NCBI GenBank assembly: GCA_963718895.1
Contig: CAVRAG010000007.1
Coordinates: 480,001-544,000 of the forward strand
Length of the DNA: 64,000 nt
Reading direction: 5' to 3'
DNA from: an uncultured Nitrososphaerota archaeon
Lineage (GTDB): Archaea; Thermoproteota; Nitrososphaeria; Nitrososphaerales; Gagatemarchaeaceae
Shown piece by piece: positions 26,103 through 29,370 of the stretch; position 1 is the first letter of the stretch; every line of letters begins with the position of its first letter. The notes under the pieces were generated by a model. The model was not told the origin of the DNA, ran no database searches, and was given only the letters and a program-made list of their open reading frames with translations. The position numbers were made by a program, and so were the translations under genes.

Positions 26103-26579
26103 CTAGCCGACGCAGTGTCGCGCTATCTTGGAGGCCACAGCTTCCAGGAACTCCCGGTCAACGGATGAGTGCGCGTTCAGTTCGTCGCTGTCGATGTCTA
26201 TCTCTCCTACGACCCTGCCCCCGTAGTGTACGGGGACGACTATCTCCGACTTCGTGTTGGCGAAGCACTCCAGATAGCGGCTGTCCTTGCTCACGTCGGA
26301 GACTATCTCCGTCCTGCCGGATTTGGCGGCCCAGCCGCAGACGCCCTTGCCGATGGGGATGGTCGTGTGGACCGTGGCTGCGGGTCCGGCCCAGGCAGCG
26401 AGGGCCAGGTTCCCACCCTTGACGAGGTATATGCCCACCCAGTTGTAGGTCGGGACCTGGTTCAGGATCTTAACCACCTTCTGCCTCACTTCGGCGCTGC
26501 TGTCCGAGGCCGACGCCCCCTCGACCTGCCCGATCAGCTCCTTGGCCCTCTCTCTGTCCATCCGGGTTCCGTTCTTCAT
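26103..26579 (-). CDS. GAF-domain protein (fRMsr/MsrC-like)
   Basis: NWVGIY, IPIGKGVCG, SEIVVP and EIDIDS motifs. Confidence 0.85.
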   Translation of the reverse strand: MKNGTRMDRERAKELIGQVEGASASDSSAEVRQKVVKILNQVPTYNWVGIYLVKGGNLALAAWAGPAATVHTTIPIGKGVCGWAAKSGRTEIVSDVSKDSRYLECFANTKSEIVVPVHYGGRVVGEIDIDSDELNAHSSVDREFLEAVASKIARHCVG

Positions 26580-26725
26580 CGCGCCTTGCTCTGGAATATG
26601 CCACTTGAAGAGCATAGCGGCCACCAGCGCTCCGAGTATAGGTCCAACCACGTACAGCCAGTACCGCGAGAGAGGTGTGCTGAAAAGGAGCGAGACCAAG
26701 CGGGGTCGAAGCTCCTCGCGGGATT
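26575..26725 (-). pseudogene. Aquaporin (MIP) C-terminal remnant
   Basis: NPARSFDPA (second NPA box) then, after a frameshift, YWLYVVGPILGALVAAMLF. Confidence 0.8.
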
Positions 26726-26907
26726 GGGAAAACGGCACGGGAAGATGATTCAAAACCTCAGCCTAGCAGGAATCAAGAGAGTAAATCGCGGCTCAACGGC
26801 ACGAAGCTTTGCGCAGCGCTTTGTTCATGAACGGAACATTGGATTTCAATTGTGCAAACCTAAATATCACCGGACAACGGCGCGGTTTAATCAAGTGGGT
26901 TTGATAT

Positions 26908-29073
26908 TTGGATAAGAAAGGCGGAATGACGAACCGAGACTGGTGGCCGAACCAGCTGAGGCTTGATGTCTTGCACCAGCGTTGCCCCAAGTCCAATCCG
27001 ATGGGCGAGGGTTTCAGTTACCCCAAGGAGTTCAAGAGCCTCGACATGGCGGCTTTGAAGAAGGACCTTCGTGAACTGATGACGAAGTCGCAGGACTGGT
27101 GGCCAGCGGACTTCGGCCACTACGGACCCCTCCTAATCCGAATGGCGTGGCACAGCGCGGGCACTTATCGCATAGGTGATGGTCGCGGGGGCGCAGGGTC
27201 CGGCAGCCAGCGCTTTGCGCCCCTCAACAGCTGGCCAGATAATGCGAACCTCGACAAGGCGCGCCGGCTGCTCTGGCCGATCAAGCAGAAATACGGTCGG
27301 AAGATTTCTTGGGCCGACCTGATGATCCTCGCCGGCAATGTCGCGCTGGAATCGATGGGGTTCAAGACCTTCGGATTCGGCGGAGGGCGCGAAGACGTCT
27401 GGGAACTCGAAGAGGACATTTACTGGGGGAGCGAGAGCGAGTGGCTTGGCGACAAGCGGTACTCCGCTGACAGGGAACTGGAAAATCCTCTCGCTGCTGT
27501 GCAGATGGGCTTGATTTATGTCAACCCGGAAGGGCCAAACCGTAATCCGGATCCGCTTGCTGCTGCCAAGGACATTCGCGAGACATTTGCGCGTATGGCG
27601 ATGAACGACGAGGAAACCGTCGCGCTCATTGGTGGTGGTCACACCTTCGGCAAAACCCACGGCGCCGGCGATGCGTCGCTCGTGGGTCCCGCGCCTGAAG
27701 CCGCCCCCATCGAGGTACAAGGTCTCGGCTGGAAGAGCAAGTTTGGTACCGGCAAGGGCGATGATACGATTACCAGCGGCCTGGAAGTCATCTGGAGTCG
27801 GACACCGACGAAGTGGAGCGACAACTTCTTCCGGAACCTTTTCGACTACGAATGGGAGCTAACGAAGAGCCCGGCCGGTGCGCATCAGTGGAAGCCGAAG
27901 GCTGGGGCAGGTGCCGGTACGGTGCCGGACGCGCACAACCCGTCAAAGCGTCACGCGCCGTCCATGCTGACCACGGACCTCGCCTTGAGGTTCGATCCGG
28001 TCTACGAAAAGATTTCGCGCCGCTTCATGGAAAACCCGGACCAGTTTGCGGACGCGTTCGCCCGAGCATGGTTCAAGCTGACGCACCGTGACATGGGCCC
28101 GCGGACGCGCTATCTCGGACCCGAAGTCCCATCAGAGGAGCTAATCTGGCAAGACCCCATCCCCGCCGTCAATCACAAACTGATTGATGCGTCGGACATC
28201 GCCTCCCTCAAGGGCAGGATCCTGACCTCTGGCCTATCAATATCAGAGCTAATTTCGACCGCCTGGGCGTCGGCATCCACCTTCCGCGGCTCCGACAAGC
28301 GCGGTGGTGCCAATGGTGCCCGCATCCGTCTGGCGCCGCAGAAGGATTGGGAAGTCAACCAGCCTGCCCAGCTAGCGAGGGTGCTCAAAGTTTTGGAGGG
28401 TATCCAGAGCGCGTTCAACAGCGCGCAGTCCGGAGGCAAGAAGGTATCACTGGCCGACCTGATTGTTCTGGCCGGTTGTGCCGGCGTAGAACAGGCTGCG
28501 AAGAGTGCTGGTCACGAGGTGGCGGTTCCCTTCACGCCCGGACGCATGGACGCCTCGCAGGAGCAAACCGATGCGGCTTCTTTCGCCGTGCTCGAACCGA
28601 TAGCGGATGGGTTCCGCAACTACATCAGGACCAGATTGGCTGTATCGGCCGAAGAACTGCTGGTCGATAGGGCGGAGTTGCTGACGCTGACGGCACCTGA
28701 GATGACGGTTCTCATCGGCGGCATGCGAGTTCTGAGTACCAATTTCGGACAGTCCCAGCACGGCGTATTCACAGAGCGGTCTGGGACGCTGACGAATGAC
28801 TTCTTCGTGAATCTACTCGACATGAGAACGACTTGGAATGCGAGTTTGGGAAACAAGGATGTGTTCGAGGGTCGTGATCGTGCAACGGACAAACTCAGGT
28901 GGACTGGCACCCGCGTCGACCTCATCTTCGGTTCGAACTCCCAACTCCGGGCGTTGGCCGAGGTCTACGCGTGTGGGGACTCCATGGAGAAGTTCGTACA
29001 CGACTTTGTAGCCGCGTGGAATAAGGTAATGAACCTGGACCGGTTCGACCTCGCCACCGAGACAAACTCATAA
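26908..29073 (+). CDS. katG: Catalase-peroxidase
   Basis: Intact 721 aa; [24 protein letters not shown] and GGHTFGKTH motifs; duplicated peroxidase domains. Confidence 0.98.
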
Positions 29074-29099
29074 AGAGAATTCGCATGGCAGGCCCGGCA

Positions 29100-29370
29100 G
29101 GGCCCGTCCTGTTCAGAGAGAGCTCGCCTATGGCGCAGAGGCCATAGTGACCGCCGGGTTGAAGCGCGCGCGGGAGACCTGGGCGACCGTCGCCACCCCA
29201 TGGGGGTCGCGACGCCATGTGCGAGGCCGATGAACCCCGAGGCCCAGACCCGCTCCGGCTGGGAAGGTGTGGCAGTCGGCGACTACGGTAATCGCGCCGA
29301 GGCCCAGGAGGGTGAGCACGAACGTGCCGTAGATCTGGGTGATGAGGGCGCTCGGGAGGGGACGCCGCAA
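29100..29370 (-). pseudogene. Aquaporin (MIP) N-terminal remnant
   Basis: QIYGTFVLTLLG...GFIGLAHG...VSRARFNPAVT (first NPA at 29160-29152), with indels and substitutions. Confidence 0.8.

Follow-up and report, generated by a model that had tools for sequence, protein, structure and literature searches.

We examined a 64,000-nucleotide stretch of DNA from an uncultured Nitrososphaerota archaeon of the family Gagatemarchaeaceae (contig CAVRAG010000007.1, positions 480,001 to 544,000; G000:C7:480001-544000 in our labels), referred to below as ‘the window’. Its genome, which is 80.5% complete, is denoted G000; other G numbers denote other genomes and L numbers denote loci or contigs. Within the window an intact gene (katG) predicted to encode a catalase-peroxidase replaces the middle of an aquaporin gene of the MIP family, a structure that we regard as nearly certain. 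The affected slot lies upstream of a gene encoding a GAF protein and appears to have received catalases repeatedly across the family. On balance, we favor the explanation that a mobile katG cassette replaced the middle of the MIP gene and was kept for its position beside likely fRMsr (free methionine-R-sulfoxide reductase) and suf repair genes, the channel itself being dispensable.

The original prediction described two parts of a single MIP gene on the same strand and in the right order, and both remnants do align, in order, to one syntenic ortholog in genome G005 (59% identity over residues 1–78, E value 6e-19, and 71% over residues 198–232). DNA homology to G005 extends from window position 29373 to 29099, is interrupted by a gap, and resumes from 26726 to approximately 26576. 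The aqpM-like 5′ remnant (29099–29373, minus strand) comprises residues 1 to ∼92 with the first NPA motif; it contains five indels, a premature stop at 29128–29130 and a histidine at the H2 position of the selectivity filter. The frameshifted 3′ remnant (26576–26726, minus strand) retains the second NPA motif and the last helix. Between them, an insert of ∼2.36 kb (26727/26741 to 29101) replaces ∼275–290 bp of the MIP gene (residues ∼93–187), in agreement with the predicted ∼2.35 kb carrying an intact, oppositely oriented katG. That gene (26908–29073, plus strand) encodes 721 amino acids and has a TTG start codon that is kept in relatives. It is preceded by a conserved block (26839–26907, plus strand) with an archaeal TATA-like box at ∼26860–26868, a putative promoter, and then by a left arm (26741–26838) held in common with a katG cassette in G046, a genome of another genus (score 53, versus a shuffle maximum of 35). 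The right end of the cassette is an attachment-site (att)-like tag (29086–29101, minus strand) that matches the 3′ end of tRNA-Arg(TCT)-type genes. The left junction can be placed no more exactly than between 26727 and 26741; at the right joint the tag and the MIP sequence overlap by 3–4 bp of microhomology. Positions 26727–26810 were also considered as a decayed MIP helix, which we rejected: the segment matches the G046 cassette, and its fit to MIP falls within that of shuffled sequences.

The KatG protein matches TIGR00198 over its full length with 1222.8 bits (cut-off 770), and all six catalytic motifs were located and were aligned to PDB 5L05. We take these to be the distal Arg-Trp-His, the adduct Tyr and Met, and the proximal His/Trp/Asp. 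The product is thus predicted to be a catalase-peroxidase HPI.

The aquaporin remnants are decayed. Substitutions affect 13 of the 54 conserved codons of the 5′ remnant, E to Q, G to R and H to R among them. The 3′ remnant can be compared with that of G007, a single-contig genome of another species that has the same left junction (84–93% identity). The two 3′ remnants have no indel in common and only two changed conserved codons in common, and the MIP gene would therefore have been alive, or freshly dead, when it was hit; it probably still functioned when, or shortly before, the insertion took place. Between these remnants pN is 0.154 and pS is 0.034 in a small sample of 91 nonsynonymous and 29 synonymous sites, and purifying selection has been absent since they diverged. 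A younger age for the 5′ remnant than for the 3′ remnant was considered and found no support (changed conserved codons, 13/54 versus 4/33). One replacement therefore probably both gained katG and killed the aquaporin. The original prediction proposed that one event had gained a peroxide scavenger and removed a channel: a single replacement is indeed likely, but G000 keeps a second MIP gene, and the slot aquaporin has also been lost in genomes where no catalase is present.

The GAF gene is present, ahead of the suf genes, in 89 of the 97 family genomes, and the slot upstream of it is normally occupied by an aquaporin gene, as had been anticipated for close relatives. Catalases occupy the slot in four lineages of genomes that belong to separate host clades. 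In the first (G000 and G007), katG lies inside the MIP gene and is divergent from the GAF gene. In the second (G046), a co-directional katG sits between 71-bp repeats, downstream of an internally deleted MIP gene; in the third (G109), a distantly related katG is co-directional and the MIP gene is gone. The fourth (G099, G100, G101, G102, G106 and G107) carries a divergent gene for a monofunctional catalase, with a 3′ MIP remnant in at least four of its members. Metagenome contigs were scanned as well and yielded 80 loci, of which 44 seem to derive from the family. A catalase occupies the slot in six: four repeat known events, and L362 and L385, judged by the identity of host and enzyme, seem to be two additional ones. 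There have thus apparently been at least six independent arrivals in the slot, five of katG and one of a monofunctional catalase, which vary in the enzyme, its orientation and the clade of the host. Apart from these, just one insert of kilobase size lies between the anchor genes in the 89 genomes, a TnpB-like open reading frame (ORF; labeled by eye) beside an intact MIP gene; one short AT-rich insert was seen among the metagenome contigs. If the genome offered 100 permissive sites, the chance of four hits in this slot would be p = 0.009–0.015, and with 300 sites, 3–6e-4. The recurrence of catalases in the slot likely reflects selection.

Two side observations concern the same slot. In G103 (L350), a member of the monofunctional-catalase clade, the catalase lies at a different site and the slot is cut by a contig end. 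Across the family, the slot is occupied by one or the other of two MIP subfamilies that are only 30–35% identical (filters H/F-I-A-R and N-V-A-R); this points to an earlier exchange of one aquaporin for another in place.

The statement that many Nitrososphaerota lack catalase fits the marine ammonia oxidizers, for which this is reported in the available text of PMC6593220, but it does not extend to this family, in which 25 of the 96 other genomes carry katG. No katG was found in 16 genomes from other families of the order, and no Mn-catalase in the 23 genus genomes. In trees built by a quick method, with the best 80 or fewer among the matches listed as outside rows, 14 family sequences formed a clade with a support of 99 among bacterial KatGs, and family KatGs as a whole were spread among bacterial sequences in three or more lineages. 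Among the matches listed, the outside row closest to the clade of the window's KatG was from a deltaproteobacterial metagenome-assembled genome. Family catalases occupy ∼20 different neighborhoods. The codon usage of katG (87th percentile for bias and 19th for third-position GC content among 186 long ORFs) was uninformative. A search for amoA found no match in G000, and its control likewise matched nowhere; we infer from family structure, soil datasets and weak leads that the host is a non-ammonia-oxidizing soil Nitrososphaerota, probably of the GTDB group UBA183.

We next consider the relationship between catalases and loss of the aquaporin. Losses were counted over the 89 genomes minus G095 and G103, in which a contig ends in the slot; a relocated ortholog (G009) and two frameshifted genes (G021 and G022) were scored as retained. 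By this count, 20 of 30 catalase-positive genomes have lost the slot aquaporin, versus 7 of 57 catalase-negative ones. The difference remains when genomes with the catalase in the slot itself are set aside (10 of 20 versus 7 of 57) and among genomes that are at least 90% complete (8 of 10 versus 2 of 23). Habitat may influence these counts, and incomplete genomes may hide catalases. A Markov model fitted over a tree with 85 scored rows (two others having too little data) gave a loss rate of 6.0 with catalase versus 0.4 without (likelihood ratio 15.8, p = 7e-5; 0 of 209 simulations as extreme); with the in-slot rows removed, the ratio was 9.0 (p = 0.003; 0 of 165 simulations). Dependence of loss on catalase was the best fit of three one-parameter models, and the signal survives dropping either major clade. 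Several near-complete catalase-positive genomes have no MIP gene at all. The recurrence in the slot and the correlated loss together make a functional link between catalase and aquaporin plausible.

Nine genus relatives are missing the MIP gene at the slot without having a catalase there, mostly through internal deletions with different breakpoints that keep both ends of the gene. The sisters of G046, of G109 and of the monofunctional-catalase clade are also without the slot aquaporin, which implies that loss has often come first or been independent of catalase. Loss probably preceded katG insertion in G046, whose sister G045 has lost the MIP gene and has no katG.

The block in the window also appears to have moved between species through the GAF gene (26103–26579, minus strand). 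G000 and G007 are not sisters (99–100% support), yet at four-fold degenerate sites the identity of their katG genes is 80% (346 sites), against 46% for flanking genes (828 sites). Their GAF genes are mosaic: the first 50 aligned codons are 90% identical and the rest 74%, and triplet tests with four third taxa gave Fisher p values of 1e-4 to 7e-7. This step in identity between non-sister hosts indicates that the block moved by homologous recombination starting near position 26420. G007 is the likelier recipient; the tract is relatively closer to the G000 clade. G007 has neither the 5′ MIP remnant nor the conserved hypothetical gene upstream of it. As for the GAF protein itself, its best PDB matches are fRMsr structures (E value 2e-23), while no match was found to the NCBIfam msrC model.

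The course of events that we favor is as follows. The katG gene would have been acquired from bacteria (we do not name a donor) and then carried by integrase-type elements, as their cargo, at the 3′ ends of tRNAs. It would have entered the MIP gene by non-site-specific recombination at short microhomology, probably while that gene was intact; homologous recombination within the GAF gene would afterwards have carried the block into the G007 lineage. The recurrence would arise because position is under selection, the catalase being co-regulated or co-transferred with the repair genes, and because the channel is needed less, the slot aquaporin being dispensable once a catalase was present.

Several observations weigh against this account. 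If only 50 sites were permissive, four hits in the slot would have a probability of 0.07–0.12, and most catalase sites in the family lie outside the slot. Four of the events are co-directional with the GAF gene and two are divergent, which argues against one simple operon rule. The Markov signal is gone when the upper g1 and monofunctional-catalase clades are both dropped (p = 0.20), or when the in-slot rows are dropped together with upper g1 (p = 0.63), and among independent pairs (n = 12) 3.4 run the same way and 0.9 the opposite way (median p = 0.375). Aquaporins retained in catalase-positive genomes are not generally relaxed (144 amino acid to 199 synonymous changes, versus 131 to 215). 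Finally, the GAF gene is a candidate free methionine-R-sulfoxide reductase by similarity; two cysteines of its product are invariant, and one of those in the S. aureus structures is absent.

Relaxed selection on retained MIP genes, sought in ten pairs, was not found overall, with G002 alone standing out. In this katG-positive genome the intact slot gene (L245) has 25 lineage-specific amino acid changes versus 7 in G005, with equal synonymous counts, and may be in early relaxation.

The nature of the channel bears on the strongest alternative. The intact slot ortholog has as its best PDB match AqpM of Methanothermobacter marburgensis (PDB 2EVU; E value 3e-40). Its predicted filter is H/F-I-A-R in this genus; other genera have N-V-A-R. 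H-I-A-R occurs in G005, G003, G014, G019 and G040, the G000 remnant also has histidine at H2, and the residue there is elsewhere Phe, Ser or Asn. AQP8 and AtTIP2;1 have the filter H-I-G-R, and AQP8 conducts hydrogen peroxide, according to the available text of PMC5816522. The streptococcal aquaporin So-AqpA is described in the accessible part of PMC6912568 as exporting peroxide from a catalase-negative host, which makes exit as plausible as entry for the slot channel; in the review table of that source, neither of the two archaeal aquaporins studied has an identified physiological function. The slot filter resembles those of AqpM, AQP8, AtTIP2;1 and So-AqpA in its Ile at H5 and its Arg, and those of AQP8 and TIP2;1 in the His at H2; its differences are His or Phe at H2 and Ala at LE1. 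The repeated arrival of catalases in the slot suggests that the channel may have handled peroxide.

If it did, the slot aquaporin may have been a peroxide channel that was functionally displaced by catalase, either because a vent for internal hydrogen peroxide was made redundant or because removal of an entry route brought a further benefit, as the original prediction had proposed. We regard this as possible but rather unlikely. The closeness of the genus filter to H-I-G-R and the streptococcal precedent for export speak for it, as do the link between loss and catalase outside the slot and in the more complete genomes, the best-fitting one-parameter model, and the near-complete catalase-positive genomes that lack any MIP gene. 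Yet G000 and G007 each retain another MIP gene, and the slot gene is kept in 10 of 30 catalase-positive genomes. Two subfamilies with different filters occupy the slot and both have been lost; in G046 katG lies downstream of a MIP gene that was already deleted, its sister being MIP-less without katG; and filter residues are an unreliable predictor of peroxide transport. In its most specific form, a tentative proposal, the aquaporin would be the ancestral peroxide outlet of an fRMsr–suf stress locus, displaced in place at least six times by two catalase families. If true, this would be a recurrent switch from export of hydrogen peroxide to its destruction, with an enzyme displacing a channel.

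The second MIP gene of G000 is intact, has an F-I-A-R filter and lies in an arsenic cluster (L001, G000:C8:781263-784907). It is antisense between genes for an ArsM-like methyltransferase and an ArsC-like reductase, with similar copies in many genus genomes, and is a candidate arsenite channel.

A further alternative dispenses with positional selection: the aquaporin is dispensable, the slot is prone to recombination because conserved genes lie on both sides of it, and a shared shift of habitat drives both changes. At least seven losses without catalase, the dependence of the correlation on two clades and the homologous recombination demonstrated in the GAF gene are all in keeping with it, and the slot has also swapped MIP subfamilies and taken up the TnpB-like ORF and the small AT-rich insert. 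A neutral landing site, though, should gather mixed cargo, whereas catalases make up six of the seven or eight independent inserts and belong to two non-homologous families and four KatG lineages; and anchored recombination spreads alleles but cannot create differing enzymes and orientations. We consider this alternative improbable.

The original prediction noted neither transposase nor terminal repeats around katG. No transposase is indeed present, but the tRNA-3′-end-like tag at 29086–29101 had been overlooked. The end of the katG coding sequence is followed, after 15–18 bases, by a motif equal in reverse complement to a tRNA 3′ end. Of the 24 katG loci whose 3′ end is available, six have this motif with no more than one mismatch, and five more show it, by eye, in degenerate form. 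Full tRNAs occupy the position of the tag in G010 and G011. In G010 the tag lies within a complete tRNA-Arg(TCT) gene, and an 18-bp repeat is found 2,304 bp away, so that katG is the sole cargo between them. The tRNA-Arg gene of G000 has the same downstream gene and no insert (read by eye), and represents the empty site. In G011, katG abuts a tRNA-Lys gene.

The window itself holds a tRNA-Lys gene with extra intron-like segments (∼37856–37985, minus strand; G000:C7:517856-517985) that was missed by ARAGORN. The same tRNA-Lys adjoins katG in G011 and G013, on opposite sides.

These tags raise the possibility that an integrase placed an element at a secondary att site in the MIP gene, and that the remainder of the element, with part of the gene, was deleted afterwards. 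In favor of this, the right junction coincides exactly with the end of the att-like tag, G000 has four matches to the tyrosine recombinase family PF00589 (all on other contigs), and in G007 a 2.95-kb islet is bounded by the same att core. The insert, on the other hand, contains no tyrosine recombinase, and the window contains no integrase and no left att; its katG copy has one degenerate tag and no attL/attR direct-repeat pair. The MIP junction site in eight intact orthologs ranks only 78–580 among ∼1,450 sites in att-likeness, and a secondary integrase site there was thus rejected as not above chance. Because it has a single tag and no integrase, and because its target does not resemble an att site, the window copy is not a tRNA-targeting integrated element, and we judge this route to be doubtful. 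A tie to a repeat family elsewhere in G000 was likewise rejected; neither cassette end matches another place in that genome.

Two other mobile units were noted. The G046 katG unit (L227:6860-9800) is bounded by 71-bp direct repeats that are ∼87% identical, 2,828 bp apart and absent from sister genome G045, and it has an apparent target duplication of ∼10 bp; these features suggest that the same cassette can also move by another route, one resembling that of a transposon. In G007 (L238:7817-12246), a tRNA-Asp gene and a repeat of its 3′ end bound the 2.95-kb islet, whose three genes look like those of an ABC transporter. After it comes a 428-amino-acid ORF with weak similarity to a G000 recombinase (E value 1e-8) and no Pfam or NCBIfam match.

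The fidelity of the assembly was checked against short reads. The check mattered for the decay of the remnants because the adjacent suf genes carry assembly indel errors. A short-read contig covers 28995–29260 with one mismatch and no gaps, spanning the right junction and four of the five indels of the 5′ remnant; the decay first inferred from substitutions is accordingly real. None of the short-read contigs in the five runs examined covers the left junction. A misassembly, or sequencing error that mimics decay, is very improbable and largely refuted: although single-base errors occur in the nearby suf genes, no contig crosses the left junction in those runs and the runs containing the stretch may belong to the source study, the right junction is spanned without gaps and the left junction recurs in G007, which belongs to another species and is assembled as a single contig.

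The suf cluster that lies downstream of the slot begins with a gene for a SufC-like ABC ATPase (25052–25816, minus strand; ‘suf’ is our reading of the ORFs, and the Pfam family is ABC_tran). Several suf-like genes at 20148–25036 are frameshifted. Short-read contigs are without the extra bases at 20696, 21310 and 24870, and these frameshifts are, at least in part, assembly errors rather than decay. On the other side, the slot is anchored within the genus by a conserved hypothetical gene (29461–29799, minus strand; 112 amino acids), the one deleted in G007; it matches no Pfam or NCBIfam family and is found near the locus across the family. Upstream of the 5′ MIP remnant, a TATA-like box at 29402–29410 is one base off the form in G005, G011, G001 and G010; it formerly stood upstream of the GAF gene too.

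Non-homologous catalases at one slot constitute a natural experiment on gene position and peroxide defense in abundant soil archaea, and the locus offers a first concrete, testable lead on the physiology of archaeal aquaporins. It also illustrates how a catalase may spread between archaeal species, first as a tRNA-tagged cassette and then by recombination via a conserved neighbor. KatG, tRNA-att islands and in-situ displacement are each already known. We found no description of a recurrent catalase-for-aquaporin swap in the open-access literature; supplements and subscription papers could bear on its novelty.

In comparison with known systems, the KatG of the window does not differ from other HPI enzymes (TIGR00198), and only its genomic context is unusual. 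In-situ gene displacement by horizontal transfer was reportedly described by Omelchenko, Koonin and colleagues in 2003. As in such displacement, a foreign gene here takes the place of a resident in a conserved neighborhood. The incoming enzyme and the lost membrane channel are not orthologs, however, and would be analogs only if the channel moves hydrogen peroxide; the swap here also recurs at least six times, with two enzyme families. Homology-facilitated illegitimate recombination offers a second comparison. The G007 allele resembles its products in that one side is anchored by homology in the GAF gene and the other is a joint without homology, accompanied by a deletion; it differs in being deduced from genomes, where a later deletion in G007 would look the same. 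A third comparison is with the tRNA-targeting cryptic integrated elements of thaumarchaea (Krupovic et al. 2019, PMC6563490), whose commonest targets, according to the available text, are tRNA 3′ ends. As in those elements, the att-like sequence equals the 3′-distal part of a tRNA, and the G010 copy is flanked by direct repeats at an intron-containing tRNA gene. The elements described in that text are 2.6–98 kb in length and have an integrase by definition, whereas the G010 unit is 2.3 kb and carries katG only. The window's copy departs further, with one degenerate tag, and lies in a protein-coding gene rather than in a tRNA gene.

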